From positions 1 to 39,642 of the forward strand of contig JAGQLJ010000002.1 in the NCBI GenBank assembly GCA_020429495.1: DNA of 39,642 bases, written 5' to 3'. The notes under the pieces are model-generated. The model saw only the letters and a list, made by a program, of their open reading frames with translations. It had not been told where the DNA came from and did no database searches. Below, in pieces: positions 5,602 to 39,642 of this stretch; the stretch's first letter is position 1; every line of letters begins with the position of its first letter. The position numbers were made by a program, and so were the translations under genes. This DNA comes from Candidatus Dojkabacteria bacterium (GTDB lineage Bacteria; Patescibacteriota; Dojkabacteria; J137).

Positions 5602-5607
5602 GCTAAA

Positions 5608-5630: not shown

Positions 5631-6290
5631 CTATTTGATCTTATCTAAAAAACTATTCTTCATTTGGTCGTATACAGCTGTATCAATACTTGTTTTGATA
5701 CATTCTTTATATGAATCTGCAGAATTTGGGTCTATGCAACTATTAAATTTACCTTTATCAATAATTTTTGCATCTATTGACATTTTAACTTCAAAATATT
5801 CAGAATCATTTACTGAGATATATGAAAAACTAGGATGAATATCACTATAGTCAAAAATTGGTGATTGTAAATCAAATACTCCTAAAGCAAGCTTACTATC
5901 TGCATGAATTGCTTCTGATTTAATTTCTATTGTAATACCTGCTCCACAAGAATATGCAAACAGATTGAAGTTATCAACGGGATAGTGAGTATTTATATCT
6001 TTTAAATATTCTTCAATATTATTAGAATAGTCAGTTTTGTCTACTTGATTTTTATCTACAGTTGTAAGTGATAAATTAATTTTGGAATTATTATAAAATT
6101 TTGTTCCTGAATTGACAGTACACTCTCCTCCAACATATTCTAAGGAGTTTTTATTTATTATGCTTGTAGATGAAATAGCCTCATGTCTTGTATTGTGACT
6201 TGTGCAAAGTAAATAACCAATGATAACTACTATAACAAATATTACTATAAAAATTGTTTGACTAATCTTTAGTTTATAATTATTTTTCAT
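5631..6290 (-). CDS. hypothetical N-terminally anchored exported protein (219 aa)
   Basis: The track ORF 5631..6425 overlaps the 3' end of the upstream giant gene. The in-frame ATG at 6290 gives MKNNYKLKISQTIFIVIFVIVVIIGYLLC..., a signal anchor. It lies 10 nt downstream of the giant gene's stop (6301-6303). No motif recognised. Confidence 0.6.
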   Translation of the reverse strand: MKNNYKLKISQTIFIVIFVIVVIIGYLLCTSHNTRHEAISSTSIINKNSLEYVGGECTVNSGTKFYNNSKINLSLTTVDKNQVDKTDYSNNIEEYLKDINTHYPVDNFNLFAYSCGAGITIEIKSEAIHADSKLALGVFDLQSPIFDYSDIHPSFSYISVNDSEYFEVKMSIDAKIIDKGKFNSCIDPNSADSYKECIKTSIDTAVYDQMKNSFLDKIK

Positions 6291-6300
6291 ACGATTGTTA

Positions 6301-14666: not shown

Positions 14667-15452
14667 ATGAGACTTTTTAAAGAATATATTTATCCTAGAT
14701 TAATTCTAGATTTAATAACATTTTTTGTGCCATTAATGGCGGTAGGGATTATTGCAGCAAGATTAAACATCTTTTCTTTTGGTGTTTGGCTTGGAATTTT
14801 TGCAAACTACTTAATGCTAGCATTCGCATTTATATATAATGATGTTGAAGATGCTGAAGATGATGCAAAATATCAGTTTGAAGCTTTAGGAATTTTGACT
14901 CATTTAAAAATGAATCTTGGTTTACATGAGCAAAAACCGGGATTCAGAAGATTTCAAAATCCTTTTTCTAATGGAATGTTAACCAGGGCAGATGGGTTTA
15001 ACTTATTGATAAGTATAATAATAATCTCAGTAGTAATTAGTTTTTTAGTTGGTGGTTTTTATGGATTTTTAATAGCACTTACAAATCTTGTGATTGGAAT
15101 TTTATACTCAGGCGGAGTAGTAAGATTTAAAGCATATGCACTTTTAGATGTTCTTTCGCATTGCTATTTATTAGCAGGTGTACAAGTTTTGTACTTTTTT
15201 ACATACAATGAAGCGAGAGTAGACTTATTTTCTTTTGTTCTACTTGCTGGAGCAATGCTTTATTCGGTTGGTGGAGATCTTTGGAATGAATATAGAGATT
15301 TTGATGAAGATAAAGCAGCAGGACTTAAAAATACAGCAAGTTATCTTGGCAAACAGAATACTAATTTAGCTAGCAAAGTTTTAACAATTGGTTCTCTTTT
15401 ACTTTCAGCAACTATATCTGGTTATATACTAATATCTCCATACATATTTTAG
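14667..15452 (+). CDS. UbiA-family integral membrane prenyltransferase
   Basis: Polytopic 261-aa protein with the two Asp-rich motifs of the family: NDVEDAEDD after TM2 and DLWNEYRDFDEDKAAG in the second half. Confidence 0.75.
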   Translation: MRLFKEYIYPRLILDLITFFVPLMAVGIIAARLNIFSFGVWLGIFANYLMLAFAFIYNDVEDAEDDAKYQFEALGILTHLKMNLGLHEQKPGFRRFQNPFSNGMLTRADGFNLLISIIIISVVISFLVGGFYGFLIALTNLVIGILYSGGVVRFKAYALLDVLSHCYLLAGVQVLYFFTYNEARVDLFSFVLLAGAMLYSVGGDLWNEYRDFDEDKAAGLKNTASYLGKQNTNLASKVLTIGSLLLSATISGYILISPYIF

Positions 15453-16632: not shown

Positions 16633-17697
16633 TTGATAATGGAACCACATCCAGTCCCACAAGATATTTTAAACACCGAATTTAAACTATTCGGAAGCTT
16701 TACTTTAAAGCAGTTTTTAAAACTGTTAATGGGAGCACTTGTTGCGCTGGTTATTTTTATAGTTCCAATGCCTGCAATAATTAAATGGCCACTAATTGGA
16801 GTATCTTTACTTATTGGTGTGGGATTAGCCATAGTTCCAAGATTTGGAGTGTGGTTATCAAATTATCTTAAAGCAATGTTTATTGCGCCAAGATATGTTT
16901 GGGTACAAACAACAGAAGCTCCAGATGTACTAAATGAGCAAATTAAAAAGACCATTAAAGAGGATCAAAAAGTAAGCAAAAGCAAAAATAGTGATAAAGT
17001 AAATTTGGATGAAATTTCATTAACCAAATTATTATCCGCAAGAGACAATCCAAGAAAAAGCACTCCATTACCAAAACAAGAAACTACTGATGCACTTGAC
17101 GAACCTGTTCGACAAAACAATATAGATAGATTAATGACAGACGTATTTAAAGGACAGCAACCAAAAGTACAACCTACAAAACCAGTTCAACAAGAACCAG
17201 CAAATAATCTACCTGCAGCAACTCCTGCACAGCCAAGAACCCAAGAGGAATATGCAGCTGAAATACAAAAATTAAAACAAGAAATGCAGTCAATTGGCAA
17301 AGATCAAAAATATAAAGATAGAGAAGCCGATATTCTTCACAGAATAAATGATCTTATGCACGAAATGAAAGTACTCGAGAATAATGACAATCAGCAAGTA
17401 CCAGTAAAAAAAATTAATATTACTGATGATATAGAGGGGCAATATGTGTTTGGTATAGTTGTTGATCAAAAAGGCCAACCAATAAGCAATGCACAGATTA
17501 TATTTGACGACGAGGGAGGTAATCGTGATATATTGGCTTTAACAGGAAATGATGGACGTTTTGCAAGTACACAAAAATTGCAGAAAGGAGTTACTTATAA
17601 TATTTCTGCAAAGCACGATGGCTATACATTTCACACATATAAAATTAGTGTTGGTGATCAAAAATTACCAGCATATAAATTAAGAGCAAAAAAATGA
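16633..17697 (+). CDS. PrgI-family (VirB3-like) membrane protein fused to a C-terminal carboxypeptidase-regulatory-like beta-sandwich
   Basis: The N-terminus MEPHPVPQDILNTEFKLFGSFTLKQFLKLLMGALVALVIF plus a second TM is the characteristic PrgI-family start. A Q/P/K-rich linker follows. The C-terminus GIVVDQKGQPISNAQIIFDDEGGNRDILALTGNDGRFAS..YNISAKHDGY fits a CarboxypepD_reg-like fold. Start is TTG 16633 or ATG 16639. Confidence 0.65.
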   Translation: MIMEPHPVPQDILNTEFKLFGSFTLKQFLKLLMGALVALVIFIVPMPAIIKWPLIGVSLLIGVGLAIVPRFGVWLSNYLKAMFIAPRYVWVQTTEAPDVLNEQIKKTIKEDQKVSKSKNSDKVNLDEISLTKLLSARDNPRKSTPLPKQETTDALDEPVRQNNIDRLMTDVFKGQQPKVQPTKPVQQEPANNLPAATPAQPRTQEEYAAEIQKLKQEMQSIGKDQKYKDREADILHRINDLMHEMKVLENNDNQQVPVKKINITDDIEGQYVFGIVVDQKGQPISNAQIIFDDEGGNRDILALTGNDGRFASTQKLQKGVTYNISAKHDGYTFHTYKISVGDQKLPAYKLRAKK

Positions 17698-22314: not shown

Positions 22315-23658
22315 ATGAGTTATCAAGCAAGGCGAATAACAATAGCCATATTAATATTACTTACTGTTTTATTAGCAGGAGTAACAATATATGTTGGATT
22401 AAGTTTAAATAATCAACCTACAGACACATCTGTTGCAAATGGAACACTTCCTCTTGGTGCTGCATGCGATGCAGGTAATGATCAATGTTCAGGTAATTTA
22501 GTTTGTTCCCCAAGTTCAGCAGGAGGAGGAAATGTATGTAGTGATCCAGGTGCTGGTGGAACTTGTCCAACAGGAGAAACATGTAGCAGAATTTTAGCCT
22601 TTCACTGTGATCAGCTAGATAATGATGGTAGATGTAATGGTAATAGAACTGAGGTTGCTTCATTCTCTGCAGGACTTGATGTTGCAGCAGGGTGTGGTCA
22701 GGTAGACACTGTTTGTTCTGTTACTGATCAAACTTGTGGAGATTTTCAAATTGTAGGAGGAAGTTGTAGTACTGCTACAACCAATTATACATGTGATACA
22801 GCAAATAATACTTGTGTTGCAGATACGACTGGAGCTTATACATCACTTGGAGATTGTCAAACAGCTTGTGCAGCACAACCTTCATACACATGTACAGCCC
22901 AATATACATGTGCTCAAGTTGCAGCAGGTGAAGGAGAATTTGCAGATGCAGCAAGTTGCGAAGCAGGATGTAATCCACCAGCAGTTAAATATTTATGCGA
23001 TACAACAACATATACTTGTAGAGGAGATGCAAGTGGAACTTATTCAAGCTTTGCAGCTTGTGATGCTGAATGTATAGCTCCTGCTTACAAGTGCGATACA
23101 ACAACATATACTTGTACTCAAGATACAACTGGAACTTACTCTTCAATGCAATCTTGTGAATCAAACTGTATTGAGCCTACAGCTGAAACCAGATACTTAT
23201 GCGACACAAGCACATATACTTGTAGAGGAGATGCAACAGGTCAATATACTGATTTACCGTCATGCCAAAATGGATGTGTTCCACAATTCTGCGGACAGCC
23301 ATGTGGAGGAAAAGATGGAATATCATGTCCAACAGGACACGTGTGTGACCAAAGTCAAAATAGATGTGTACTAACTCAATGTTTAAATAATCCATCTTGT
23401 ACAAATAATGGATGTGTTCTACCAAATACAGCAATTGGAGATGATCCTAAAGACTATGCGATATTTGGTATTTTAATGGTTCTTGCAGGAATTGCAGTAT
23501 ACAAACTACAAGTAGTTTCTAATAGCGTTCTGCTATTACAAGAAATGTTGGGTTCTGGCTTAAGGTCTGAAAAGAAGTCTCAGCTTGAAAAAGAGATGGA
23601 AAAGCTACAAAAAGACAGAGAATCTTATCAATCTAAATTTGAAAAAACTAGCTTTTGA
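22315..23658 (+). CDS. exported Cys-rich repeat protein with LPNTA motif + TM anchor + charged tail
   Basis: 447 aa. N-terminal signal anchor (ITIAILILLTVLLAGVTIYVGL). Five tandem ~33-aa four-Cys modules. LPNTA at 23419-23433 is followed by the TM IFGILMVLAGIAVYKL and a ~50-aa K/E-rich tail. Confidence 0.75.
   Translation: MSYQARRITIAILILLTVLLAGVTIYVGLSLNNQPTDTSVANGTLPLGAACDAGNDQCSGNLVCSPSSAGGGNVCSDPGAGGTCPTGETCSRILAFHCDQLDNDGRCNGNRTEVASFSAGLDVAAGCGQVDTVCSVTDQTCGDFQIVGGSCSTATTNYTCDTANNTCVADTTGAYTSLGDCQTACAAQPSYTCTAQYTCAQVAAGEGEFADAASCEAGCNPPAVKYLCDTTTYTCRGDASGTYSSFAACDAECIAPAYKCDTTTYTCTQDTTGTYSSMQSCESNCIEPTAETRYLCDTSTYTCRGDATGQYTDLPSCQNGCVPQFCGQPCGGKDGISCPTGHVCDQSQNRCVLTQCLNNPSCTNNGCVLPNTAIGDDPKDYAIFGILMVLAGIAVYKLQVVSNSVLLLQEMLGSGLRSEKKSQLEKEMEKLQKDRESYQSKFEKTSF
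22786..23277 (+). repeat. five tandem ~99-nt coding repeats (33-aa module Y.C.....Y.C.......G.Y.S...C...C)
   Basis: Modules: YTCDTANNTCVADTTGAYTSLGDCQTAC; YTCTAQYTCAQVAAGEGEFADAASCEAGC; YLCDTTTYTCRGDASGTYSSFAACDAEC; YKCDTTTYTCTQDTTGTYSSMQSCESNC; YLCDTSTYTCRGDATGQYTDLPSCQNGC. The 24-nt string TGCGATACAACAACATATACTTGT is exact at 22996-23019 and 23092-23115. Confidence 0.85.
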
Positions 23659-23671
23659 GTAAACTGGTGAA

Positions 23672-26600
23672 ATGGATAAAAAGAAAATATTAACAATAAT
23701 ACTGATTCTCTTATTAATTGCATCTCTTGGAGCGGGTGGCTATTACTATTATCAAAATAATATAAGCCAGCCAGATACTAGTGTTTCAGATACAGGTACA
23801 GTGAGAAGTGATGGAAAATGTAGAATAGGTTTATATGCTGCTCATGATGCAGTTGCAAGTAACTTAGATAATAGCCGAAGTGCACTACCTTTATCTACAT
23901 TGCAGTCAGCTTTTAACGTTGCAACAAGTAATATTGATGCAAACAATAAAGAGTTAAGAACAATAACATCAGCTGATGGTTTTAATAAATTTGATAATCT
24001 TGATTTTATTTTTATTACAGATGCAAATTTAGGAGAGCAAACATCAACTCCAACTAAGAACTCTGCTGCGCATCAAAGTATTCAAAGTTATATTCAACAA
24101 AAATGGTATGACGGAACAAATCTTATTATTATGGGAGATAGTTCCCAGCATACAGATGGCTCAACAAATGCAAGCGGGCAAACAATTTATGTAGGAGACC
24201 ATGCAGCAGGAACTGCTGGCCCATATACAACAAACATTTCAAATAATACTATTAGATATCTTTATGATCAGCAACTAGGAGGTGGAACTTATTTTCAAGA
24301 GAAAGAAAATTGGGGACATTTTAGAAATAATAGTGGAGAATACTTCTTAGGCTTTACTCCAAGACAAACAGCAACACTAAATGATACTGATGCACCTCCT
24401 TTTATAAATGGTGCTACATTGAATTTTTTAGCAAATACAACACCTGGAATGTTGATTGTTGATAATAACTTTGCAAAATGTATTTATGAGGCACCACTAA
24501 AAGGAGGAGACCCATCAACTGGAAATCAATTTCCAACTGTTCCTTCATATCCCGCATCAGGAAGCTGTATAGCGGCATATATTCAAAAGGACTCATTTGC
24601 ATCAACAGGATATCCAAATAATGGGTTTATGCTTGTTGATGGAAACTATGGAGCAATAACTAAGTCTAAATTAGTAGAAATATTAAATTCATCACCAGAT
24701 TGTGCAAATTCAACAACGCCAACACCAGATCCAACGCCAACACCAGATCCAACTCCTCCACCAGTAAGTGGTCCAGGAGGGCTTATTCTTCAACCTGTGT
24801 GCGTAAATGGAAAACCACAAATTAATGTAACTTGGAATATTGTTCCAAGTCCTGACGGGTACTTTGTAGATGTAGATATTGATGATGCAAATGTTTGGCT
24901 ATTAGATTCAAATACTAACAATTATTTCTGGAACCAAAAAATTTCTGGAGATACAGCAAGTTCAGGTACAAGAACAGCAACTATTCCAACATCATTTAAA
25001 GCATATTATAGTGGAGATCCAAATGTATCACCTAACAATAGAGATGCAATGCCTGAGCTGCAAGAAAATACTAAATATAGAGTAAGAGTTTCATCAATTC
25101 AACCTGCAGGTGGAGGAAATCCAATCGGCGATACAAATGGTCTATCTGTAACAACTGCTTCTTGTACAAAAACATGTTATCAATGTAATACCTCAACCTT
25201 TGCTTGTAGCTCAGCTACAGTGAATACTGAGGTTAGATGCAATGGTTCAGATGGTTACTATACATCAAATTCATTGTGTCAGACTGGTTGTTCAGAACCA
25301 ACAAAGACTTGCTATAAATGTAATACAACATCTTATACATGTTCATTTGAAACTGTATCACAATCAACAAGCTGTAATGGAACATCTGGAACATATTCTG
25401 ATATATCAACATGTACAAATTCATGTAATGAACCAACAAAAACTTGTTATACATGCGATTCAGCAAATAGTACATGTAATGCAGTTCAAGTGTCACAGTC
25501 AACAAGCTGTGATGGAACAGGAACGTATTTTGATGCAGAATCAACATGCCAAACAAATTGTGTAACGCCAACAATCCCTGATCCAACAATAGAGAAAACT
25601 GGAACACCTGGTACAACTGGACCAGAACAAACAGAAGTTTCTTATTCAGTTGTAGTATCAAACACTCATACAGCAGATAGAGTATTTGATATAAAAGATA
25701 ATTTACCTAGTGGAATAACAGGTGCTACAAATATATCTAATTCTGGAACTTATGACTCAGCATCTAATGCAATAACATGGGATGATATTACAATTCCTGC
25801 ATCGGATTCTGTAACTTTGACTTATACACTAACTGTGCCAAGAGCTGCATATGGAAGTTTATTAAATACAGCTCAAGTGCTTGAATCAGACTCATCAGCA
25901 GTAATTACTCAAACAACTGAAACTGTTGAAATTACATATACAAATCTTGAAATTGTTAAAGACGGATTATTAAATGATGTTAATACAAACAATGCAGATA
26001 TTTCATATACTCTGCAAGTTTCTAATCCAAACGATTTTGCTGTACAAAATGCAAGTGTAAAAGATAATTTACCAGTTGGAGTAACAGCTATAAATAATGT
26101 AAATCCTGCAGCAACAACTGAGAATGTAGCAGGAAGAACAATTGAATGGACAGGCTTAACATTTGCTGCATTTGAAACAAAAACATTTACTTATAATTTA
26201 ACAATAGGATCAACTGGATTCTCTCCTGCAGGTCCTGCTAGTGTTGATAATATAGCTGAAGTAGCAGTTGATGGAGTACAACAAGACAATGATGATGAAT
26301 CAATTCCTGTTGATGCAACAACTGCAGCAACAATTTCAAAAGCTTCGACAATTGTTTATTCTGAAGACAGTGTTACTGTTAACTATACAATTACAGCAAG
26401 AAATATTGGTGATACCAATATTGTTGACTACAGCGTTGTTGATGACTTAGATTCAAAAGTTACAGATGCTATGGTTTCTAATATAAGTAATTCAGGAACT
26501 TTAAGTGGAGGATCAATTACATGGTCTAATGTTGATATTAATATAAATCAAAGCCAAACATTCACATATACAGTCACAATACCTAGAACTAGCCCAGGTG

Positions 26601-26974
26601 ACTATAACAATGTTGCAACATTATATGATGCTTCAAATAACCAGGTAGCTCAAGATGATCAAAGTGTAAATGTTCCAGCAATAGTAGTTGTTCAAGATGC
26701 ACCAACGCCAACACCAACACCTACACCAACACCTAGCCCAACGCCAACGCCAAGCAGTCCGGCACCACAACCTGCACAAATTCCAGCAACAGGTCTTGTG
26801 GATGATTCTGGAATATACATAATTTTTGGTTCACTATTATTAATGGCAGGATTAGCAGTGTATAAATTAAGAGTAGGTAAAACAGTATTACAAAAACTTG
26901 GAGCTGAAGACTATACATACGCAGAGCTAGAGATGACAGATAAAAACAAAGTTGAATTAAGAAAAAAGAAATAG
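23672..26974 (+). CDS. large cell-surface protein: unknown N-terminal domain, PT linkers, 3 six-Cys modules, DUF11-type repeats, IPATG sorting-like signal
   Basis: 1100 aa. N-terminal TM/signal (ILTIILILLLIASLGAGGYYYY). PT-rich linkers at about 24714-24765 and 26701-26757. DUF11-like repeats (DIKDNLPSGITGATNISNSG, VKDNLPVGVTAINNV, VVDDLDSKVTDAMVSNISNSG). IPATG at 26780-26794, then the TM IFGSLLLMAGLAVYKL and a charged tail. Confidence 0.8.
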   Translation: MDKKKILTIILILLLIASLGAGGYYYYQNNISQPDTSVSDTGTVRSDGKCRIGLYAAHDAVASNLDNSRSALPLSTLQSAFNVATSNIDANNKELRTITSADGFNKFDNLDFIFITDANLGEQTSTPTKNSAAHQSIQSYIQQKWYDGTNLIIMGDSSQHTDGSTNASGQTIYVGDHAAGTAGPYTTNISNNTIRYLYDQQLGGGTYFQEKENWGHFRNNSGEYFLGFTPRQTATLNDTDAPPFINGATLNFLANTTPGMLIVDNNFAKCIYEAPLKGGDPSTGNQFPTVPSYPASGSCIAAYIQKDSFASTGYPNNGFMLVDGNYGAITKSKLVEILNSSPDCANSTTPTPDPTPTPDPTPPPVSGPGGLILQPVCVNGKPQINVTWNIVPSPDGYFVDVDIDDANVWLLDSNTNNYFWNQKISGDTASSGTRTATIPTSFKAYYSGDPNVSPNNRDAMPELQENTKYRVRVSSIQPAGGGNPIGDTNGLSVTTASCTKTCYQCNTSTFACSSATVNTEVRCNGSDGYYTSNSLCQTGCSEPTKTCYKCNTTSYTCSFETVSQSTSCNGTSGTYSDISTCTNSCNEPTKTCYTCDSANSTCNAVQVSQSTSCDGTGTYFDAESTCQTNCVTPTIPDPTIEKTGTPGTTGPEQTEVSYSVVVSNTHTADRVFDIKDNLPSGITGATNISNSGTYDSASNAITWDDITIPASDSVTLTYTLTVPRAAYGSLLNTAQVLESDSSAVITQTTETVEITYTNLEIVKDGLLNDVNTNNADISYTLQVSNPNDFAVQNASVKDNLPVGVTAINNVNPAATTENVAGRTIEWTGLTFAAFETKTFTYNLTIGSTGFSPAGPASVDNIAEVAVDGVQQDNDDESIPVDATTAATISKASTIVYSEDSVTVNYTITARNIGDTNIVDYSVVDDLDSKVTDAMVSNISNSGTLSGGSITWSNVDININQSQTFTYTVTIPRTSPGDYNNVATLYDASNNQVAQDDQSVNVPAIVVVQDAPTPTPTPTPTPSPTPTPSSPAPQPAQIPATGLVDDSGIYIIFGSLLLMAGLAVYKLRVGKTVLQKLGAEDYTYAELEMTDKNKVELRKKK
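25169..25573 (+). repeat. three tandem 135-nt coding repeats (45-aa six-Cys module KTCY.C....(F/Y).C.......(S/R)C.G..G.Y.....C...C..PT)
   Basis: KTCYQCNTSTFACSSATVNTEVRCNGSDGYYTSNSLCQTGCSEPT; KTCYKCNTTSYTCSFETVSQSTSCNGTSGTYSDISTCTNSCNEPT; KTCYTCDSANSTCNAVQVSQSTSCDGTGTYFDAESTCQTNCVTPT. Confidence 0.85.
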
Positions 26975-30389: not shown

Positions 30390-30812
30390 ATGAATACTGA
30401 CGAAATTAGGTCTAAATTGCATGAAACACTAAAAGAAGCAGGAGTTGAGGGTGATCAAATAGATGTTTTTTTATATCTTTTGCAGCCTTTAATTACTGAG
30501 TATTTACAAATGCTTATTGAAAAAAATATTTCAGAAGCTCAGGCAAACGAACTTGCTCTACAAGGATTAGAAGAAGGATTAGATGAAAAGGAAATTGCAG
30601 TAGCAATGCAATATTTATATGAAGAAAAAACTGGAAAAACATTGCAAGATGAAATAAATACACTTGTTAGTATGTTGGCAGACAACATAAAGGCAATGCA
30701 AACTGAAATGAAACAAAGATTGGATGAAATTATGAGTTTACCAGCAGACCAAAGGCTTGAAGAGTTTCAGAAGGATATTTTAAAAGATTTAGAACCATCG
30801 CAAAATGAGTGA
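30390..30812 (+). CDS. small acidic all-helical protein, first gene of the giant-protein operon
   Basis: 140 aa, E/D/L/Q-rich, with no hydrophobic segment. Its TGA (30810-30812) overlaps the ATG (30805) of the next gene in ATGAGTGA. Confidence 0.6.
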   Translation: MNTDEIRSKLHETLKEAGVEGDQIDVFLYLLQPLITEYLQMLIEKNISEAQANELALQGLEEGLDEKEIAVAMQYLYEEKTGKTLQDEINTLVSMLADNIKAMQTEMKQRLDEIMSLPADQRLEEFQKDILKDLEPSQNE

Positions 30813-33800
30813 TACTCAAAATAATACAAGCAGTGAAGGAAATGTATTTAAAGATATTCAAGATCCTAGAGGAACAGGTGAGGTTATTCCACAAGTAAGA
30901 GTAAGGGTACAAGGTAATACTAGAAGCCTTGTTGATTATCGTGAGAATCCTAATGGAGATGTTTATGATGCAAACGAAATTGATAAAATGGACCTGACTG
31001 CTGAACAAAGAGAGTGGATAGCTAATAGACCTGAACTTAACCCACAATCTAATAATGATAATATACCTGACAATAGAGCCATTCAGCCTACATATAACTC
31101 AGCTCAAAATAATTCAAATAATGAAGATATTATTGAAGGTGAGTGGTATGAAGCAGATGATGATTCTGATATAAATCAGAAAATAGAGCCTAATCAAATA
31201 TCTATTCAGCAAGATGGCTCAACAGTAATCAATGGTGCTCCACCACAAAATCAGAATAATGATAATGTACAACAGGATGATGATGTTATACAAAATGTGA
31301 CTATTGATGATAAAGATTGGAGTAATAGAATAAATAATGCTGGGACAGAAGAAGAGATTAATAATTTAGCTCGTGAATTACAAGGTTTGAACATTGATAA
31401 TAATCAAAGATTAAGGCTTCAAAGGCAAATAAATACTAGAGCTGCTAATCTGTCTAGAATAAATAGAATATCTCAAGCTAATACAGATGAGGATGATAAA
31501 GTAGAACAAGATCGACCGGTTGCTGTACCTGTAGCAAATCTTGATACTAAAGATGATAGTCCAACAGTAACAGCTGATGATTTAGATGACTTAGATACTC
31601 CTGATGATGAAGATATTTTAGATGATATTGATGATGTTCAATTAACAACTATAAGGGAAGCTCTTGTTAGTGTTTATGATCGAACTAGAGAAGGAATAAG
31701 AGAGCGATTAAGAAATAGAAGAGAGGAGCTAAATGTTATTAGGCAAGAATTAATTGATTCTTGGGATGCAAGAACTGAAGATAATACACTTACAAGATTA
31801 GGTGTGGGTATTTTAGGAACAGGAAGAGTTGCACTTGAAAATATTAGGAACTCAAGAACATTGGTAATGAATTTAAGAGAAAAGCTTAGAGGGCCAGAAT
31901 TAACAGATGCTGAAAAAAAAGAAAATGATAGAGCTATAAAAAGGGCATACAAAGTATCAAGAGAAAGTATTCAAAAAGGTATAAGAGGGGAAGACAATAG
32001 TGCTTTTAGAGCAAATCTATTCTATAGATCTACAAGAGGAGTACTTAGAGGTATGCTGCAAACTCAAAGACTTATAAATAGAGTTGAAAATACACAATTA
32101 GGTAGATATATAGCTCAAGCTAGAGTATTAGCAGGTACAAATTCTGATGGTTCTCCTAGATATGAATATACAGCTTTAGGTGACAGCAGACTAAATAGAA
32201 GGCAAAGATTTTGGCTAAATTTTAGAGAACTAACAGGTATTTATAGAGATCAAGATTTTGTAGTCAGAGGAGGGATGAATGTAGCGCAAAAGAAAGAACT
32301 TGCAGATGCAATTGCAAATGCTGGGCTAACTATGAGTGAAGAAATTGCAAGAAAAGGGCGAAGATCTGCAATTAATGCATTTTCAAGTGGTCGGGGAATT
32401 TCGGGCAGATTAAGCAGAACAAATGCAGTAAGAAATGGGATTGCCCTAGGTTTAAGATTAGGGGCATCAACACTTGGTGTTATGGGAATACAACCAGAGT
32501 CACTATATAATCTGACACGTCTAGCAAGTATGACAATTTCTCCATTAGCAACAATTGCTAATAAAAGAAGGGAAATGATTGATAAGTTTGGAACATCAGC
32601 TTGGAAAAGAATGGTTGTTCCAATGACACTTATGTCAGGAATTTCAGGTTACCTTTCTTATCTGGGTCCACTTAGAGAAGCATCTGACAATATTGTAAAC
32701 GATTTATTAGTAAACAGAGCAGGTGGAGTTTTGTTAGATGATGCAAAAAAGCGAACTGCAGAAATGGTTACATCATGGGGGCTTAGATATACAACTAACT
32801 ATATTGCTGGTCCAATACTTGGAACAATGTATGCACTAGTTTATGGTGCAGGAGGTGCGGATCAAGGTCAGGTTGCAGGAAGATGGAAAAGATCAGTTGG
32901 TCTTGGATTAGCATCAGCATCAATTGCTGCTCAAGGTGCATCAATGGCAGGTGCAATTTCATTTGCTTCAGACATTGGATTAGTTAATGCAACAAAAAAC
33001 ATTCTATTTGGAAAACATGTTTCTATAGAAAACTCTCCAGATCCACTTGCAGTATATGAATCTCAAAATTCAGATGGGGCAACAGAGTTACTAGATTCAA
33101 CAAAGGAAATTATTACCTCTTTGGTAGCAGATGGAAATGAAGCAGTAAATTTGCCAAATGGTGATATTGGATATTTGAATGTTGGTGGAGTTCTAGTTCC
33201 ACTAGAGCATCCAAATGTTCCAAAAGGAATTATGAACGATTTGGTAAACAGGCAACCAAATAATATATTTGGTAATCCTGTTGCTAGTGCATCAAGACAG
33301 TTAACAGAAAATGCTGGAATAGCAGGAGATTTATTTAATGGGGTAGATAGAGATCAAGTTGTTGTAAATATAGGTAGCGGCTCTCCTGAATACGTTAGAG
33401 TATCTGGAATAGAACTTGATCCAAATATAAGAGTACCTTGGAATACAGGAGAAAGAACGTTATTAAATGTACCTGATGGAGTTGGAAGCAGTAACTCAAT
33501 GCTTTATTTAGGTCACGATCAAATAGGTTATGGTCTAAATAATGGTGAGGTTAATCTTGTTATGGATCCAGAAAATCCAGCTATACTTAGACAAATTGGA
33601 AATCCAGGAGCTCTTTATTCTGCACCTGAAGTTGAAGCATATATAAATGGAAATACTGTAAATGTTCCTAATCCTATAGGAATTGAAGTATATGGAGAAA
33701 ATGGAGATGTAACCAGAGTACTAAGACATGTAAGCGATGTACCAAACGTTGACGATAGAATATTTGGAGGAGTGGCTACATATCAAGATGCATCTGAATT

Positions 33801-36360
33801 AACTGGAAATGTTTATAATGCAAATGGAGATGTAATTGCCTTTAAAGCTGAAAATATTCGAATTCCGGTAGATGGACAAGAAGTACAACTTGGAGATACA
33901 TATGCAGTTCAAAGTCCAACTGAGGCAAATCAATATTTTGTTGGTGCTACATCTTCAACTAGGATTGGATTAGAAAGAGATCCAAATGGAGAGTTTGTGG
34001 TAAATAAAGTTGTCTTTAATAATCATGAATATTTATATGGTCAATCACCAGATCAAGTTGGAACAACATTCTATTTCTCTGGATCTGCAACAGAAAATCC
34101 TTCTGCAGTAGAATTAATTAGAGATTCTGTGACTGGTAATCTTACCGCTCATGAAGTATTCACAGTTAACCCAACAAACGATCCTAATGTGTTTGAGCTT
34201 CCTTTTGGAGTAGATCCTAACAACTTAACATCGTTACAAACTCAGGCAGGAAGCATTGACCAAATAGATTTCTTTACAACAAATAATGCAGGTAGAATTG
34301 TTGGAATTGGACCTGCTGAAAATGGTATTAGAAGAGTATTTGAAGCAACAGGACATGCACCTGGTTCAACACTAAGGTTAATAGAAAATCAGAGTGTAAT
34401 TGAAAATAATATACATACAATTGCTACAGGAAATTCACAAAATGGTCCTGTTCAATATTTAGTGCCAGCTGATGGTTCTGCTGATCCGGGAGATTTAGTT
34501 TATTCTCTTAACTCAGAAGCACCAACAACACTTGCACCAAATTCAAATCATATTGCGTACTTGATGGGTACAACACAAAATGAAGTGGCTGCAAGCATTG
34601 AATTTGATAATGCTGGGAATATAATTAGCTTTAATGGTACAAATTTGGAGTTAGAAAATGGGGCACCGAATTATGATTTAATAAATACTATTCATAGAGA
34701 TTTTGGAATAGATACAAATAGACCAATTATCTTAGATCGAAGCAATCTAGATGTAACTTATAGACGAATTGGAGATAATTCTGAATTTAATCCATTACCA
34801 GAGCAGCCTTTAACACCAGAAGCAGCTACCTTACTAGAATCACCAGCTGGAGCACCAGTAGCTACTCCAGAAAATAATGGTAATTTACTTGGGGCTGCTC
34901 AAAATGGTCAAGGACAACCAACAACATTACCAGGTCAAGTTAATGGTGCAGCAGTCCCTAGCCGAATAGAAGGAGCAGGAGAAAGAGTTGAAGGTCCATT
35001 TACAGATCAATTGCCAGGAAGATCAGAAACAGGTGGTGAGTTTGTTAATCCACAAAATTCAACTCCTGTTGTAACAACTAGCACCAGAGTTGACCCAAGT
35101 GTATTGGTACAAGGTTTAAGAGATAGAAATTTTGCATATGGAAATAATACAGGAGCACTGTATGTTGCAACAGATGTATATAATCAACTATCAAATGTTC
35201 AGAACGAACAACAGTTTAATGCATTTTTATCTGAGTATGGAATTACTTTAGCAGATGGTCGAGATGCTCAATTTTACTTAGGAAGTACCGAAAACAGATG
35301 GCATTTATCTTTTGATGTTGCAGATGCGGTTGCTACTGCAGATTATAATAGGGTAATTGAAATTAGAGATAGTGCTGATCCACAAGCTTTAACAACTGCA
35401 ATTATGCAAACTTGGAGACAAGGTGTGGAAAAAGGAACCAATAATATTCTTGCAGATAACATTACTCCATACATTACTCCACAAGAAGTTGCAATACAAA
35501 ATGCAGGCAGTGCAAGATTGATTAATGTAAACATTGATAATAAAACAGAAGTAACAGTAAATGCAGCTGCAATACCAGGCGAAAGAGACGAAAGTGCAAT
35601 TTTAGATTTAGTTCAAAGGACTTTTGATGATCTTGTTGATACTAGTCAAACAGTGTTAGATGCTGGTTTAAACTTTATTGGAGGCAGAATAAATGATTTA
35701 GATAGAATTCTTGCAGATGTAACAGGACTTAGAAGAACAGATGAAGGATTATTTGAAGGGCTTATTGAAAGAAATTTAGGTGAAAATACTGCAGCAGGGC
35801 AAGAGCTAAGAAGATTAGTTAATCCAATTGGGCGAGATATTAATATCCATCCAGAAAGATGGACGCTGGGTACAATAGCTTTATTAGGACTGTCTAACTG
35901 GGGTCCTGGGCAAATAATCAGAATGCCAACAAACTTCGCATTTGGTAAGTTGGGTCTAGATATGCCTTTAGCCAAAACTCCACATGCAGGTTGGAGATCA
36001 CCTGGAAAATATTTACTTCCACAAAGTAGAAGGGCAGAACTTGAAGTGGTAAGAATAGAGAGAAATCTTAAACAACTCGAAAGAGAGTTAGATAGAATAG
36101 ACTTATTAAAAGTTAAGAAAGGGTATGGCACACCGGGTGCAGCCATACCTCCAGGAGCTCCAGCAGCAGCATTAACTTTTCAAACTAATCAAACAGATAG
36201 GGTAAATAGGATAAAGGATAGAATAGATAAATATGAGACAAAATATGGAATAGATAAAGTTAAAGTAAAAAGAAAGTTTATGCAAGATAATTTAAATACA
36301 AGATTGGCTAAGGCTAAATCTGATCTAACACCATTAGCAGCTAGAATTTCATTAATATAA
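30805..36360 (+). CDS. giant (1851 aa) polytopic membrane protein of unknown function
   Basis: N/D/Q-rich low-complexity N-terminus (to about nt 31650). Arg-rich helical region. About 5 Gly/Ala-rich hydrophobic segments at about 32430-32990 (GIALGLRLGASTLGVMGI, MVVPMTLMSGISGYLSYLG, YIAGPILGTMYALVYGAGG, SVGLGLASASIAAQGASMAGAISFA). About 900 aa of N/G/V/P-rich sequence that is probably exposed. A hydrophobic segment WTLGTIALLGLSNWGPG at about 35860-35910. C-terminal coiled coil. No catalytic or family motif recognised. Confidence 0.8.
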   Translation: MSDTQNNTSSEGNVFKDIQDPRGTGEVIPQVRVRVQGNTRSLVDYRENPNGDVYDANEIDKMDLTAEQREWIANRPELNPQSNNDNIPDNRAIQPTYNSAQNNSNNEDIIEGEWYEADDDSDINQKIEPNQISIQQDGSTVINGAPPQNQNNDNVQQDDDVIQNVTIDDKDWSNRINNAGTEEEINNLARELQGLNIDNNQRLRLQRQINTRAANLSRINRISQANTDEDDKVEQDRPVAVPVANLDTKDDSPTVTADDLDDLDTPDDEDILDDIDDVQLTTIREALVSVYDRTREGIRERLRNRREELNVIRQELIDSWDARTEDNTLTRLGVGILGTGRVALENIRNSRTLVMNLREKLRGPELTDAEKKENDRAIKRAYKVSRESIQKGIRGEDNSAFRANLFYRSTRGVLRGMLQTQRLINRVENTQLGRYIAQARVLAGTNSDGSPRYEYTALGDSRLNRRQRFWLNFRELTGIYRDQDFVVRGGMNVAQKKELADAIANAGLTMSEEIARKGRRSAINAFSSGRGISGRLSRTNAVRNGIALGLRLGASTLGVMGIQPESLYNLTRLASMTISPLATIANKRREMIDKFGTSAWKRMVVPMTLMSGISGYLSYLGPLREASDNIVNDLLVNRAGGVLLDDAKKRTAEMVTSWGLRYTTNYIAGPILGTMYALVYGAGGADQGQVAGRWKRSVGLGLASASIAAQGASMAGAISFASDIGLVNATKNILFGKHVSIENSPDPLAVYESQNSDGATELLDSTKEIITSLVADGNEAVNLPNGDIGYLNVGGVLVPLEHPNVPKGIMNDLVNRQPNNIFGNPVASASRQLTENAGIAGDLFNGVDRDQVVVNIGSGSPEYVRVSGIELDPNIRVPWNTGERTLLNVPDGVGSSNSMLYLGHDQIGYGLNNGEVNLVMDPENPAILRQIGNPGALYSAPEVEAYINGNTVNVPNPIGIEVYGENGDVTRVLRHVSDVPNVDDRIFGGVATYQDASELTGNVYNANGDVIAFKAENIRIPVDGQEVQLGDTYAVQSPTEANQYFVGATSSTRIGLERDPNGEFVVNKVVFNNHEYLYGQSPDQVGTTFYFSGSATENPSAVELIRDSVTGNLTAHEVFTVNPTNDPNVFELPFGVDPNNLTSLQTQAGSIDQIDFFTTNNAGRIVGIGPAENGIRRVFEATGHAPGSTLRLIENQSVIENNIHTIATGNSQNGPVQYLVPADGSADPGDLVYSLNSEAPTTLAPNSNHIAYLMGTTQNEVAASIEFDNAGNIISFNGTNLELENGAPNYDLINTIHRDFGIDTNRPIILDRSNLDVTYRRIGDNSEFNPLPEQPLTPEAATLLESPAGAPVATPENNGNLLGAAQNGQGQPTTLPGQVNGAAVPSRIEGAGERVEGPFTDQLPGRSETGGEFVNPQNSTPVVTTSTRVDPSVLVQGLRDRNFAYGNNTGALYVATDVYNQLSNVQNEQQFNAFLSEYGITLADGRDAQFYLGSTENRWHLSFDVADAVATADYNRVIEIRDSADPQALTTAIMQTWRQGVEKGTNNILADNITPYITPQEVAIQNAGSARLINVNIDNKTEVTVNAAAIPGERDESAILDLVQRTFDDLVDTSQTVLDAGLNFIGGRINDLDRILADVTGLRRTDEGLFEGLIERNLGENTAAGQELRRLVNPIGRDINIHPERWTLGTIALLGLSNWGPGQIIRMPTNFAFGKLGLDMPLAKTPHAGWRSPGKYLLPQSRRAELEVVRIERNLKQLERELDRIDLLKVKKGYGTPGAAIPPGAPAAALTFQTNQTDRVNRIKDRIDKYETKYGIDKVKVKRKFMQDNLNTRLAKAKSDLTPLAARISLI

Positions 36361-36361
36361 T

Positions 36362-37105
36362 ATGTACAGAATAAAATTAGCAACAACATCACCAGATATA
36401 GTTACATTTCTATTTAGAGATTTTGTTAACTATCAAACAGAAGAACCTGTAGAGGGTATTCAAGCTTTAACCGTGCATTCAATTTTTGAAGCAACAGAAA
36501 TGCCAATTATTCTAAAACAAAAAGAAAGTGATGCTTCTTACGCGTTTTTCTTTCTACCATTGTTAGAAGAGTTAGTTGGGTTGCCAGTAGAAGTTGAAGA
36601 TAATATCTTCTATATAAAATATGGCGATAACAGAGTAGGCGTTTTAGAGCAAACAATGGACGAGCTAGTAGAGATTATTGAAGAATATATTGAAGAACTA
36701 CCACCAATTAAACCCCAGCCATTCTTCCATCCACTTTCAAAGCTTGAATTTAATGTTGGGGAACATGTTTTAATCTTTGGAAATGATGATTTTAAAATCT
36801 ATAGATCAAGATCAGTTTTACCAACATATACATTAATCACTGAAAATACTGCACAAGATCCAGATTTTAACGGACAAAAATTTGTTGTACCTTTAGAATT
36901 ATTGGGTGAAGATTTATATGCATTTGTTGGAAGTGGATTTAGGGCACCAATTGAGCAATATGTTGGAGATTTAGAAAATAATTTCTCGGAAAATATGTAT
37001 ACTGAATTAATAGAAAAAATTAAATCATTTAATAATTTAACTGACGATAGCAAAGCAGAATTTAATATAGTGTTAGAAGAAGAATCTAATGAGGAAAATA
37101 GCTAA
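36362..37105 (+). CDS. acidic cytoplasmic hypothetical protein, 247 aa
   Basis: The ATG is 1 nt after the giant gene's stop. No signal or TM segment. E/D-rich. Confidence 0.6.
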   Translation: MYRIKLATTSPDIVTFLFRDFVNYQTEEPVEGIQALTVHSIFEATEMPIILKQKESDASYAFFFLPLLEELVGLPVEVEDNIFYIKYGDNRVGVLEQTMDELVEIIEEYIEELPPIKPQPFFHPLSKLEFNVGEHVLIFGNDDFKIYRSRSVLPTYTLITENTAQDPDFNGQKFVVPLELLGEDLYAFVGSGFRAPIEQYVGDLENNFSENMYTELIEKIKSFNNLTDDSKAEFNIVLEEESNEENS

Positions 37106-37895
37106 ATCAACAGTTATCATGCTTTTTGTTTTTGCAATTACTAGTGTTTTTGTTTCACCTGTAAAAGCAATTCAGCTTGATGGAGAGACACAGCTAGATT
37201 TAGGAGATACAACAGCAGTGGAGATTCTAGCTAATCCAACAATGACAGATGCTACAACAGCACAAATCTCTTTGGGTCTAGAAGATAAATTAAAAGTAGT
37301 AGAGTATGTTCCACCACTAAATCCAACCTGGTCTCCTGAAATTGGAACTTGTGAAAATGGAGCTTTGTTTGAATCCAATACTGTATGTGTAGATTTAATA
37401 AAATTAGATGGAACAATAGAAATTGGAGAAAGCCTTGGAATTTTTGTTGTTCAAGGAGCAATGCCTGGGGAAGGTAATATATTTGGGTTTAGTGATAATG
37501 GGTATAAAAATGCAAATGGAGATTTTGAAGCACAATCTGGATTACTATATAAAATAGTAGTAAGTGGAGATGAAACATTGCCAACAACTAGTGGTCAACC
37601 TCCAGCTACAGATAATCCTTATATCCCCACAACTACAAGTATTCCTGAAACAGCACTTTTTATTAAAGATAATACAATGTTTAAGGCATTTATAAGCTTT
37701 ATGATGGCAGCAACTCTTGCATTATTTGCAATTCTTATGCAATATGTAGATAGGAAAAATATTATGCTAGCTTTTAATGGATATAAAGAAAACATTCAAG
37801 ATTTCTTTGCAGCATTAAAAGAAGAAGAACAAGAGTATAAAAAAGAACAGTACGCTAGTAAGGTATTAAAATCTAAACAATATAAAAATGAGTGA
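37089..37895 (+). CDS. exported protein with signal peptide and IPETA + TM + charged-tail C-terminus
   Basis: 268 aa. Signal MRKIAKSTVIMLFVFAITSVFVSPVKA. Beta-rich middle, possibly cohesin-like (weak). IPETA at 37641-37655, then the TM FISFMMAATLALFAILM and a ~50-aa K/E tail. It overlaps the upstream gene by 17 nt. Confidence 0.65.
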   Translation: MRKIAKSTVIMLFVFAITSVFVSPVKAIQLDGETQLDLGDTTAVEILANPTMTDATTAQISLGLEDKLKVVEYVPPLNPTWSPEIGTCENGALFESNTVCVDLIKLDGTIEIGESLGIFVVQGAMPGEGNIFGFSDNGYKNANGDFEAQSGLLYKIVVSGDETLPTTSGQPPATDNPYIPTTTSIPETALFIKDNTMFKAFISFMMAATLALFAILMQYVDRKNIMLAFNGYKENIQDFFAALKEEEQEYKKEQYASKVLKSKQYKNE

Positions 37896-38631
37896 TAAAA
37901 AATTAACACCAATAATGTATATAGTAGTAACGTTCATTGCAATACTAGGATTTTTAATCCTTCTTGTTGTTGATTCTGGAAATAATACTAACAATAATAA
38001 TGGCGATGTATCTGTAACAGGATTTGGTGAAGAAGCTACAAGAGAATTATTTCCAGCTATTGCACAAGCATTTTTAAACACCGACTGTGATGCTCTATTC
38101 CACGAAGGATATTTAAACGATTCCAGATTTACAAATTTAAGCACATCTGGATTTAGTTTATCTTCAGAAAAAATATCACCTGTTGATAATAGACCTCTTC
38201 AATGTTTTTATGATTTAGGAAATGGGAAAGCATTTACTGTAAAAGTAAATACATATAGCTCTAATTCTATTATCGATGCAACCAGATCAGATTTATTTAC
38301 AAGAGTAAATGCAGAATATATAGATAATTTAATTGATCAAGATAGAATAGGAATTTTAGATTATTCTTTTGGAACTGATGTGGCAGACAGCACACAGTGT
38401 GTTTCAACTGTATTTCATCCTCTTAACGATTTTGAATCAATAAGCATAGAATATTTTGGGTTTGATTGTGAACAAAGCTATGACTTAAACCGTGAAGTAG
38501 TTGCTGCAATTGGAAACTATATTGTATTTATGGTTGAAGATGTATATGTGGCAAATGGAACCTCAACTGAGGCATTGTTAGATAAGTGGGGCTACGATGA
38601 ATACATAACTAATTTGGAATTTTACAGATAA
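37888..38631 (+). CDS. N-terminally anchored exported hypothetical protein, 247 aa
   Basis: TM IMYIVVTFIAILGFLILLVV. ATGAGTGA overlap with the upstream gene. No motif recognised. Confidence 0.6.
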   Translation: MSDKKLTPIMYIVVTFIAILGFLILLVVDSGNNTNNNNGDVSVTGFGEEATRELFPAIAQAFLNTDCDALFHEGYLNDSRFTNLSTSGFSLSSEKISPVDNRPLQCFYDLGNGKAFTVKVNTYSSNSIIDATRSDLFTRVNAEYIDNLIDQDRIGILDYSFGTDVADSTQCVSTVFHPLNDFESISIEYFGFDCEQSYDLNREVVAAIGNYIVFMVEDVYVANGTSTEALLDKWGYDEYITNLEFYR

Positions 38632-38635
38632 TCAA

Positions 38636-39642
38636 ATGAATAAAAAAACTTCATTAATATTTTTTGGACTATTATTTGTAGCAGTTTTTTCATTATTGTT
38701 AATTTCTGCTTTGTTTAAAAATAGTAGAACTGAAAATGTAAATGAATCAACTGGAGATACTCAAGGAGCATATACACAGTCTGATGAAGGATATATTCAA
38801 TACATTACTACTCAAACACGAAAAACAGTTCCAGCAAATGCACCTGAACAAAAAGATGAGCCTAGTGTTGAGAGAAACGGAGCTGACGAACCAGTTATTG
38901 ATGTAGTTGTTGAGGAAGATGATAACAAACAAACAATAAATTTTGTGAGTGATACAAGTAATCCATTCAATTATACGGATGTTTCAGTATCTGTAAGTTA
39001 TTGTCCACAAGATTCTTGTCCCGACGGTACAGTAATACCTGAAGATAATAATCCTGTTCATAACACATGTGTAGATAGATTAGCTCAAGCTTGTATAGGA
39101 CATGAAGGAACAAACACAACAGGAGGATCAACAGGTGGAGCATGCAGTAGCGCATATCCAACTTCTAAAGGATGCTTTGGAGCAGCTCCAGGTACACCAG
39201 TGGGATTAGCTGGTGGTGGAGAGTGTGTTTGCACAATCACGACAGGTAATTTATGTTCTTGTGTAACAACCAAAGAGCCAGAAACATCTACAACACTACC
39301 AGGAGATCAAAATGGATTTAATTTTGATGAGACAATATCGGGCAATGATTTTGACGCAAACTATTCTGCTACATCAAGATGGAACTATACAACCTCTAGA
39401 GGATGTATTTCAGATGTTGAACTAGGAACTACTCCAGGTTCTGGAAAATATGCAACCTATTCTGAATGTCATAGTGCAAATTTAAAATACAATCTTTCAA
39501 ATGGAATTTGTATTGGAAGCTTAACAGGTACTTATTCAACATATCAAGAATGTAAAAATGCTTTAGTTGTTCAACAAGATCAAAATTCAGGAGATAAATG
39601 TACTTATCCGGATCAATGTATAAATTATAAAAGGTGTACAAC
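38636..39642 (+). CDS. N-terminally anchored, Cys-rich exported protein; partial, continues beyond the window end
   Basis: Not in the ORF track (no stop). My translation from ATG 38636 stays open to 39642: MNKKTSLIFFGLLFVAVFSLLLISALFKNS...CPQDSCPDG...ACIGHEGT...GECVCTITTGNLCSCVTT...GKYATYSECHSAN...GTYSTYQECKNAL... The G.Y.TY.EC strings echo the module of 22315..23658. Confidence 0.65.
   Translation, partial: MNKKTSLIFFGLLFVAVFSLLLISALFKNSRTENVNESTGDTQGAYTQSDEGYIQYITTQTRKTVPANAPEQKDEPSVERNGADEPVIDVVVEEDDNKQTINFVSDTSNPFNYTDVSVSVSYCPQDSCPDGTVIPEDNNPVHNTCVDRLAQACIGHEGTNTTGGSTGGACSSAYPTSKGCFGAAPGTPVGLAGGGECVCTITTGNLCSCVTTKEPETSTTLPGDQNGFNFDETISGNDFDANYSATSRWNYTTSRGCISDVELGTTPGSGKYATYSECHSANLKYNLSNGICIGSLTGTYSTYQECKNALVVQQDQNSGDKCTYPDQCINYKRCT

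Follow-up and report, generated by a model that had tools for sequence, protein, structure and literature searches.

The 39,642-bp contig JAGQLJ010000002.1 of a Candidatus Dojkabacteria bacterium, analysed over its whole length and called the window below, ends in a chromosomal operon that is restricted to its lineage and encodes a giant protein, g2; it has at least six genes (g1–g6), and eight (g1–g8) in the two relatives whose contigs extend further downstream. Judged from sequence, the feature is genuine and conserved and, at family level, a true orphan. In general terms it is a locus of several genes for surface or envelope proteins in a Candidate Phyla Radiation (CPR) bacterium, real and probably envelope- or surface-related. 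We tentatively favour the reading that the operon builds a lineage-restricted, membrane-anchored cell-surface complex, a reading to which we would give somewhat less than an even chance. An earlier annotation made from the sequence alone (the initial annotation) had proposed a single expression unit around a polytopic giant protein, as a candidate envelope or host-contact apparatus in a small, host-dependent genome; the organism is a CPR bacterium.

Six consecutive open reading frames (ORFs) were found on the forward strand exactly where that annotation had placed them (Table 1), from position 30390 to the end of the window, with intergenic junctions of −8, +1, −17, −8 and +4 nt from g1/g2 to g5/g6. 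The view that they form one unit was strengthened by the relatives: the order g1–g5 is kept in three further lineages of metagenome-assembled genomes (MAGs), namely L001 (GCA_964437465.1), L002 (GCA_020429545.1) with L003 (an ENA assembly close to L002), and L006 (GCA_964635995.1, contig CAZWRA010000032.1), and the 8-nt overlap of the g1 stop with the g2 start (ATGAGTGA) is present in four of four genomes (window, L001, L002, L006). The L001 locus, on a 26-kb contig, keeps the order g1–g6, and L002, a closer relative than L001, has the same arrangement; the conservation of the six-gene order in relatives, suggested earlier as a check, was found for g1–g5 in all of them and for g6 where the contig extends. 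SufBD and YgjP genes flank the operon upstream in all four genomes, with two extra genes (245 and 148 aa) between YgjP and g1 in L006. Downstream, a convergent AsnB (asparagine synthase) gene is found in L001 and L002/L003, directly past g8 in L002 and past one additional 420-aa ORF in L001. As the window is the entire contig, g6 is truncated by the assembly; its full-length homologues have 900 aa (L001) and 1044 aa (L002), and g6–g8 are visible only in these two genomes, whose contigs reach that far. The product of g7 has 238 aa in L001 and 251 aa in L002 (29% identical), that of g8 84 and 80 aa. The MAG of L001/L005 is labelled 'uncultured Candidatus Saccharibacteria bacterium'; it shares the SufBD–YgjP–operon–AsnB synteny with the Dojkabacteria MAGs, and the label may be loose.

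The GC content of the operon (0.32–0.37) is the same as that of the remainder of the contig. Promoter- and terminator-like matches were no more numerous in the scan than expected from shuffled sequence, no Rfam family, tRNA or other RNA gene was found in the operon region, and no operon protein showed paralogy with another protein encoded in the window, nor did g3 with g7.

The orphan status of the six proteins, for which the initial annotation had recognised no catalytic, pilus, secretion-system or adhesin motif, stood up to all family searches (Pfam, NCBIfam, PHROGs, PADLOC, PDB), and profile searches placed none of them with confidence in a known family. None of the six had a significant match in Pfam, NCBIfam or PHROGs, and PADLOC gave none for g1–g5 or for g6–g8 of L002; matches below threshold in these four collections were noise (e.g., YtxH, DUF445, FliL, ComGG), those of g1 being sub-threshold in Pfam and sub-threshold and of unknown function in PHROGs. 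Full-length g6, g7, g8 and g2 homologues from the relatives likewise had no match in Pfam, and g2, g3, g4 and g5, each compared with PDB sequences as a single sequence and as a profile, gave no true match; a match of the g4 tail to HP0242 was of low complexity and judged spurious. A cohesin-like impression of the g4 ectodomain found no support in Pfam and was dropped. Four true members of the giant family were retrieved when 1.84 billion representatives at 50% identity were searched exhaustively with a HMMER profile, and a word-indexed search of 5.8 billion proteins, for which g2, g5 and a g5 profile served as queries, led to the same four lineages only. One further candidate, P0006 (cell-wall-binding-type repeats, E value 1e-4), was rejected as a g2 relative, the match being a coincidence of beta-hairpin repeats. 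No additional relatives were found among GTDB species representatives, in two JGI metagenome scans or in IMG/VR scans, and tblastn gave no match against 50,697 phage records or against plasmid records. The giant protein itself is identical to the NCBI hypothetical protein KC678_00155 (Candidatus Dojkabacteria MAG).

Table 1 Coordinates of the operon genes, of regions of the giant protein g2 and of sequence features of g4–g6 in the window. aa, amino acids; K, lysine; R, arginine; pI, isoelectric point; TM, transmembrane segment.
Feature	Position	Strand	Description
g1	30390..30812	+	140 aa, acidic, pI 4.3, no TM, no Cys
g2	30805..36360	+	1851-aa giant protein, orphan family, no Cys, K 2.4%, R 7.1%
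g2 aa 1–300	30805..31704	+	Acidic, N/Q/D-rich, poorly conserved, probably disordered
g2 aa 301–540	31705..32424	+	Arg-rich region, 16 R per 100 aa
g2 aa 541–735	32425..33009	+	Four Gly/Ala-rich, weakly hydrophobic small-xxx-small helices; possible marginal TM or membrane-interacting bundle
g2 aa 740–1340	33022..34824	+	Beta-rich, acidic, nearly Lys-free (K 0.7%)
g2 aa 1341–1686	34825..35862	+	Pro/Gly-rich linker, then variable region; K 0.6% over aa 1341–1680
g2 aa 1687–1705	35863..35919	+	C-terminal hydrophobic segment, Kyte–Doolittle mean 0.91
g2 aa 1706–1851	35920..36357	+	K/R-rich tail, cytoplasmic-like composition
g3	36362..37105	+	247 aa, acidic, pI 4.2, no TM, no Cys
g4	37089..37895	+	268-aa exported protein, Sec signal and C-terminal anchor
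g4 aa 1–27	37089..37169	+	Signal peptide
g4 motif	37641..37655	+	IPETA
g4 TM	37680..37748	+	Strong TM
g5	37888..38631	+	247-aa bitopic protein, N-terminal TM and ectodomain
g5 TM	37912..37971	+	N-terminal TM
g6	38636..39642	+	5′ fragment (335 aa), N-terminal TM and Cys-rich exported region
g6 TM	38654..38716	+	Strong N-terminal TM

That the genes are maintained is indicated by their substitution patterns. For the window compared with L002/L003, the ratios of nonsynonymous to synonymous substitution rates (dN/dS) are 0.05 for g5, 0.11 for g3, 0.21 for the N-terminal part of g6 and 0.31 for g4, and within g2 they are 0.16 over codons 1095–1244 and 0.16–0.17 over codons 1095–1394; all ratios are rough because synonymous sites are near saturation. 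Judged by these values, the cluster genes are clearly selected coding sequences. The protein identities span a wide range: g5 is by far the most conserved member, 91% identical to the window protein in both L002 and L003, and g3 is 80% identical to its L003 homologue; towards L001, g1 is 42% identical, and the g2 homologue (P0002, 1850 aa) is 30% identical over aa 390–1332 of the window protein. The homologue in L002 has 1997 aa, and an uninterrupted g2 frame of 1850–1997 aa is retained in three lineages. The initial annotation had argued for an important function from the coding space spent on the operon; that claim is tempered because the distribution of the family, with four members in 1.84 billion representatives, is very narrow.

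The fourth lineage lacks an intact frame. In L006 the g2 gene (4368–11560) has six in-frame stops (TAA 4521, TAG 5126, TGA 5306, TGA 6287, TAA 8876 and TGA 9767) and one frameshift near 5060–5126, and a further frameshift lies close to the 3′ end of g3; SufBD, YgjP, g1, g4 and g5 are intact. An alternative genetic code was ruled out as an explanation of the stops, since TAA, TAG and TGA are mixed and a frameshift is added to them. That the lesions cluster in g2 and g3 suggests that the inactivation is real, and L006 g2 is probably a pseudogene, with an error of the MAG consensus as a possible alternative. Such caution is suggested by L002, in which g3 (8470–9221) is split into ORFs of 102 and 143 aa on a contig with 3.8x coverage, and in near-identical sequence of L003 it is intact (4306–5049, 247 aa); the split is probably an assembly error and calls for care in reading frameshifts in these MAGs. 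Decay of the giant ORF in sister genomes had been named beforehand as counter-evidence, and it was found in part, in one of three relatives. On this basis g2 might be an evolutionarily short-lived ORFan that the cell can dispense with, in the course of being lost and without important function, as the family of only four members, the disruption of g2 and g3 beside intact neighbours in L006, and the fast evolution of the g2 N- and C-terminal parts (apparent dN/dS 0.3–0.7 at saturated dS) would suggest; set against three lineages with an intact frame, the low ratios at the centre of g2 and in g5 and g3, and conserved synteny and 8-nt coupling, this explanation appears highly unlikely.

The regions of g2 (Table 1) differ strongly in composition. 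The N/D/Q-rich N-terminus described in the initial annotation was recovered, N+Q amounting to 11–31% and D+E to 17–26% per 100-aa block of the first 300 aa; a short acidic motif (VANLDTKDDSPTVTADD) is shared with L002 in the alignment of this otherwise poorly conserved part. The Arg-rich region was recovered as well (16 Arg per 100 aa over residues 300–500), and aa 301–540 hold the best-conserved motifs of the protein, RGMLQTxRLIxRVEN and NFRELTGIY. A C-terminal coiled coil had also been claimed; one heptad-patterned stretch (aa 1740–1767) is compatible with it, a crude scan being its sole basis. No internal repeats were detected by BLAST.

Lysine is scarce in g2, a bias that also covers its Arg-rich helical part; elsewhere on the contig the proteins have 6.8% K and 3.0% R, compared with the values given for g2 in Table 1. 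Exported proteins of the contig are generally Lys-poor (1–6%), and g2 is more extreme. Its L001 homologue (5720–11272) has no Lys over ~1300 consecutive residues, from ~200 to 1500, and in all g2 homologues Lys reappears in the last 100–200 residues; in the window, aa 1681–1851 have 9.4% K and 8.8% R. Cys is absent from three of the four homologues, the fourth having one.

The relationship of g2 to its homologues changes along the protein. In aa 391–740 (31975–33024) two blocks are 48% and 39% identical to L001, compared with 29% and 23% to L002; in aa 1095–1340, the region most constrained relative to L002, the order is reversed, with 84% identity to L002 and 29% to L001. The greater proximity of aa 391–740 to L001 points to module exchange or lineage-specific acceleration, and the helical, hydrophobic module may have been exchanged, or may have diverged very fast, in the L002 lineage.

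How g2 relates to the membrane is the point on which the favoured reading turns. The initial annotation had described a cluster of Gly/Ala-rich membrane segments and called the protein polytopic. The composition was borne out (G+A ~24% in residues 500–800); the hydrophobicity is marginal, with Kyte–Doolittle (KD) means of 0.9–1.3 that nowhere exceed 1.26 in the window protein, so that the segments are too weakly hydrophobic to be called transmembrane (TM) by hydropathy alone and do not by themselves bear out the term polytopic. The four Gly/Ala-rich segments (~544–562, 603–621, 667–685 and 700–718) have KD means of 1.1–1.3 and summed Hessa values of +5.5 to +6.1 kcal/mol, a range that widens to +5.5 to +7.9 when aa 1687–1705 are included. 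True TM helices of the same window (g4, g5, g6, a histidine kinase and the polytopic protein at 14667–15452, the last two classified without a family search) have KD values of 2.0–3.0 and Hessa values of −5 to +1. In the homologues the positions of the hydrophobic segments are conserved, and some values are higher: L002 reaches KD 1.5, and the C-terminal segment of L006 reaches 1.89, which is TM-grade.

The distribution of charge and the composition add to this picture. K+R amounts to 18% in aa 380–540, 4.5% in aa 740–1340 and 18% in aa 1680–1851, which agrees with the positive-inside rule and an in–out–in topology. A composition log-odds score was trained on 11 cytoplasmic proteins and 7 exported proteins or ectodomains of the contig; by this score g2 aa 740–1680 groups with the exported set, and both ends of g2, like g1 and g3, group with the cytoplasmic set. 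Membrane anchoring of g2 is plausible on these grounds.

The mechanism that we infer, at every one of its steps, would be as follows. The acidic and Arg-rich N-terminal ~540 aa of g2 and its K/R-rich, coiled-coil C-terminal tail of ~150 aa would stay in the cytoplasm; the protein would engage the membrane through the Gly/Ala-rich small-xxx-small helices (aa ~541–735) and the C-terminal segment (1687–1705), and would expose ~940 aa of acidic, beta-rich, nearly Lys-free sequence outside the cell. The products of g1, coupled through the 8-nt overlap, and of g3 would serve the cytoplasmic parts of g2 as chaperone or adaptor, and g4, g5 (with a disulfide-bonded ectodomain) and g6 would assemble with the g2 ectodomain on the surface. 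The likely purpose would be contact with a partner or host cell, or organisation of the envelope.

Several observations weigh against this reading. The scores of the g2 segments match those of the most hydrophobic soluble-domain stretches of the contig; no signal peptide was found in g2; the protein is devoid of Cys, which the other exported proteins of the contig contain; the classifier by composition, with ~18 training proteins, is a crude one; the AlphaFold2 (AF2) models described below are too poor for an assessment of folds or contacts; and the disruption of the giant gene and g3 in L006 suggests that the system is dispensable at least there. The first three of these, with the long, charged Arg-rich helices, the coiled-coil tail and the cytoplasmic-type g1 and g3, would also suit a giant scaffold, cytoplasmic or membrane-peripheral, that resembles a cytoskeleton or an attachment organelle and has its soluble partners in g1 and g3, in which case g4–g6 would merely be co-transcribed, being organised by g2 from the inside or functionally unrelated. 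Such a scaffold is unlikely, though the most probable of the rival readings: the central 940 aa have 0.6–0.7% K and an exported-like composition unlike that of every cytoplasmic protein tested, the charge around the hydrophobic cluster is positive-inside, and the hydrophobic segments keep their positions in the homologues, with TM-grade hydrophobicity in one of these.

The AF2 alignments held four sequences each, the only ones possible. For g2 aa 380–1340 the model is unusable, with a predicted local distance difference test (pLDDT) of 45.6; its secondary structure, of low confidence, is mainly helical in 380–740 (with short strands near 435–490), mixed in ~740–900 and beta-rich in ~900–1280, and Foldseek retrieved generic beta-propeller noise only (TM-score ≤0.1). 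The model of g5 reached a pLDDT of 60.5 and a predicted TM-score of 0.58; after the TM it shows helices, an antiparallel sheet of six to seven strands and a long C-terminal helix. Against PDB, Foldseek with g5 gave no match below an E value of 0.01, the top folds being helix-grip, Tsi3 and MTC28 with TM-scores ≤0.3.

Under the cell-surface reading the five other products would be partners of g2, and their sequences agree with the mixture of cytoplasmic-type (g1, g3), Sec-exported and anchored (g4) and N-terminally anchored (g5, g6) proteins that the initial annotation had described. Neither g1 nor g3 has a hydrophobic segment; g1 is a candidate cytoplasmic partner or chaperone of g2, and g3 is predicted to be cytoplasmic. 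The alpha+beta ectodomain that follows the TM of g5 has four invariant Cys (67, 106, 171 and 194). The fragment of g6 has 17 Cys in 335 aa; the protein is conserved between clades only in its first ~170 aa, the remainder being replaced by differing Cys-rich repeats.

In g4 the signal peptide, IPETA motif and TM anchor proposed earlier were all present, as were the N-terminal anchors of g5 and g6 and the Cys-rich nature of g6. The Sec signal peptide of g4 (MRKIAKSTVIMLFVFAITSVFVSPVKA, followed by IQ) has a core with KD 2.16 and an AXA-like VKA site, and is kept in four homologues. Its ectodomain has two conserved Cys, and a charged tail of 48 aa (aa 221–268) follows the TM. Across the four genomes a [LI]PxT[AN] motif lies 7–11 aa before a TM of KD 2.3–2.8, and a tail of 28–52 aa and mixed charge follows; the motif is non-canonical. 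Signal peptide, motif, strong TM and charged tail resemble those of sortase-anchored (LPXTG-type) surface proteins in monoderm bacteria and CPR. The differences are that the motif is not canonical LPXTG, that a spacer of 7–11 aa precedes the TM, that the tail is unusually long, and that the likeness concerns g4 only, not g2.

Among ORFs of at least 100 aa in four loci, the C-terminal architecture of g4 recurs in only two surface proteins, both in the window: those at 22315–23658 (+; LPNTA) and 23672–26974 (+; IPATG) are large, Cys-rich and end in a g4-like module. The [LI]PxT[AN]/[AG]–spacer–TM–charged-tail module may be a clade-specific version of a sortase-type sorting signal. Sortases have been reported as common in CPR (PMC6851277; PMC4736985). 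No sortase domain was matched among 17 window proteins searched against Pfam, nine other ORFs of at least 130 aa being unscanned. Both large proteins repeat a Cys-rich mini-domain (Y..C....G.Y.S...C...C), the second (1100 aa) carries DUF11 domains, and g6 holds Cys-rich mini-domains resembling those of the two.

The weakly hydrophobic small-xxx-small helices of g2 would also fit a protein that leaves the cell. Here g2 would be exported, as an effector or as a membrane-inserting protein of pore or translocon type; g1 would keep it soluble as its chaperone, and it would be passed onto or into a partner cell, where glycine-zipper-like helices would insert after release and avoidance of Lys would protect the protein in the target, with g4–g6 forming a surface platform. 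The small acidic g1, translationally coupled upstream in all four genomes, the extreme depletion of Lys with Arg retained (in L001, 0 Lys over ~1300 aa) and the mosaic helical module speak for it; pairs of translocator and chaperone and Lys-poor toxin chains are analogies. We consider it improbable: no secretion ATPase, channel or known export signal lies in or beside the cluster and no toxin or enzymatic domain was found, the K/R-rich C-terminal tail and hydrophobic segment of g2 look anchor-like, and Lys depletion is general among the exported proteins of this genome. As to polymorphic toxins or effector–immunity pairs, g2 has no domain in Pfam, NCBIfam or PADLOC, and its C-terminus is a conserved K/R-rich, coiled-coil-like tail in place of a variable enzymatic domain.

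Overall, the initial annotation described the sequence largely correctly, and its reading as a polytopic trans-envelope machine is supported only in part: there is no positive sign of such a machine, and no ATPase, channel or secretin-like component is present. A more daring reading, which we rate as distinctly improbable, would see an undescribed host-contact or translocation apparatus in which a chaperoned, essentially Lys-free giant is exported without a Sec signal, inserts glycine-zipper-like into the membrane of its own or a partner cell, is served by three dedicated surface-anchored proteins, and avoids Lys against Lys-directed modification or degradation.

Two known systems resemble the cluster in outline, and the cluster might be a hyper-diverged type IV secretion system (T4SS) of the monoderm or Patescibacteria type, its extended VirB6-like subunit being g2 and its VirB8-like subunit g5, or a domesticated phage tail in which g1 would be the chaperone and g2 the tape measure. 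For a T4SS there is the likeness of ~five hydrophobic helices and a very large hydrophilic domain in g2, with small bitopic neighbours. Proteins of the extended VirB6 type combine at least five hydrophobic helices with large hydrophilic domains, and VirB6 has been reported to be scarce or too diverged in some classes of Patescibacteria (PMC12857230; PMC12102498); T4SS are important in cultivated Patescibacteria (PMC12857230). Elsewhere in the window, the ORF at 16633–17697 (+) gives a weak PrgI/VirB3-like match that, with an E value of 8e-5, falls short of the Pfam cutoff; it covers an N-terminal region of two TMs, to which a beta-sandwich of CarboxypepD_reg/Big-like type is fused. No VirB4 gene adjoins the ORF, which is followed by an 88-aa ORF and a gene for a Fic-domain protein.

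Within the cluster the T4SS likeness was not sustained at the sequence level. No gene had a VirB6/TrbL, VirB4, VirD4 or VirB8 match at E≤1; for a VirB6/TrbL/PrgH-type subunit there was no match in Pfam or NCBIfam with g2 at E≤1 or its homologues at E≤0.1. No ATPase was found in the cluster of any genome, neither a VirB4-type ATPase nor any Pfam domain in g1–g6 or in g7 and g8 of the relatives, and precomputed Pfam results for the neighbours in L001, L002, L003 and L006 list only SufBD, YgjP, AsnB, LTD and 23S_rRNA_IVP. The helices of g2 are far less hydrophobic than true TM helices, and g5, which is bitopic, retrieved no VirB8 or NTF2-like match, and no PrgL or TraM, the modest confidence of its AF2 model limiting this comparison.

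The phage analogy rests on the coupling of a small acidic g1 to a giant g2 with charged helices and Gly/Ala-rich segments; from general knowledge, a chaperone followed by a giant, helical, Gly/Ala-rich protein recalls tape-measure loci. The differences are that no PHROG match was obtained for g2 at E≤1 and no match in phage, plasmid or IMG/VR collections, that there are no tail, baseplate or capsid genes, that ~900 aa of g2 are beta-rich, and that the downstream genes encode Sec-exported, membrane-anchored proteins. The chromosomal housekeeping context, which is conserved, speaks against both derivations; they are largely refuted at the level of sequence comparison and are highly improbable.

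A further comparison is with the giant CPR surface proteins of the same contig, at 6301–11892 and 23672–26974, which are likewise large, acidic, Lys-poor and beta-rich and plausibly act in cell contact; they differ in having signal peptides, known domains and Cys, whereas g2 has none of these and lies in a coupled operon with cytoplasmic partners. To our knowledge, CPR/Patescibacteria rely on cell contact, and the molecules mediating it are almost unknown outside Saccharibacteria (type IV pili, T4SS). The cluster is a concrete, conserved candidate, with eight genes and ~13 kb in the relatives showing all eight, in genomes expected to be small. Its value is limited by its occurrence in a handful of uncultured MAGs, one lineage of which shows gene decay. 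A Lys-free stretch in an AT-rich genome, marginal conserved helices, a mosaic module and a coupled acidic partner may hint at how g2 is handled or at its surroundings, and a Lys-free giant with coupled partners is unusual enough to merit structural and expression interest.

Two further ORFs of the window were noted. That at 6301–11892 (−; 1863 aa) has a signal peptide, DUF11, SH3, peptidase M23, two DUF5648, LGFP and CHAP domains, and its product is predicted to be a multi-domain secreted peptidoglycan hydrolase, possibly directed against the host cell wall. That at 2953–5601 (+) encodes a multi-TM, histidine-kinase-like protein (read without a family search) with a low-complexity C-terminal tail of ~150 aa rich in Pro, Ala, Gln and Glu.

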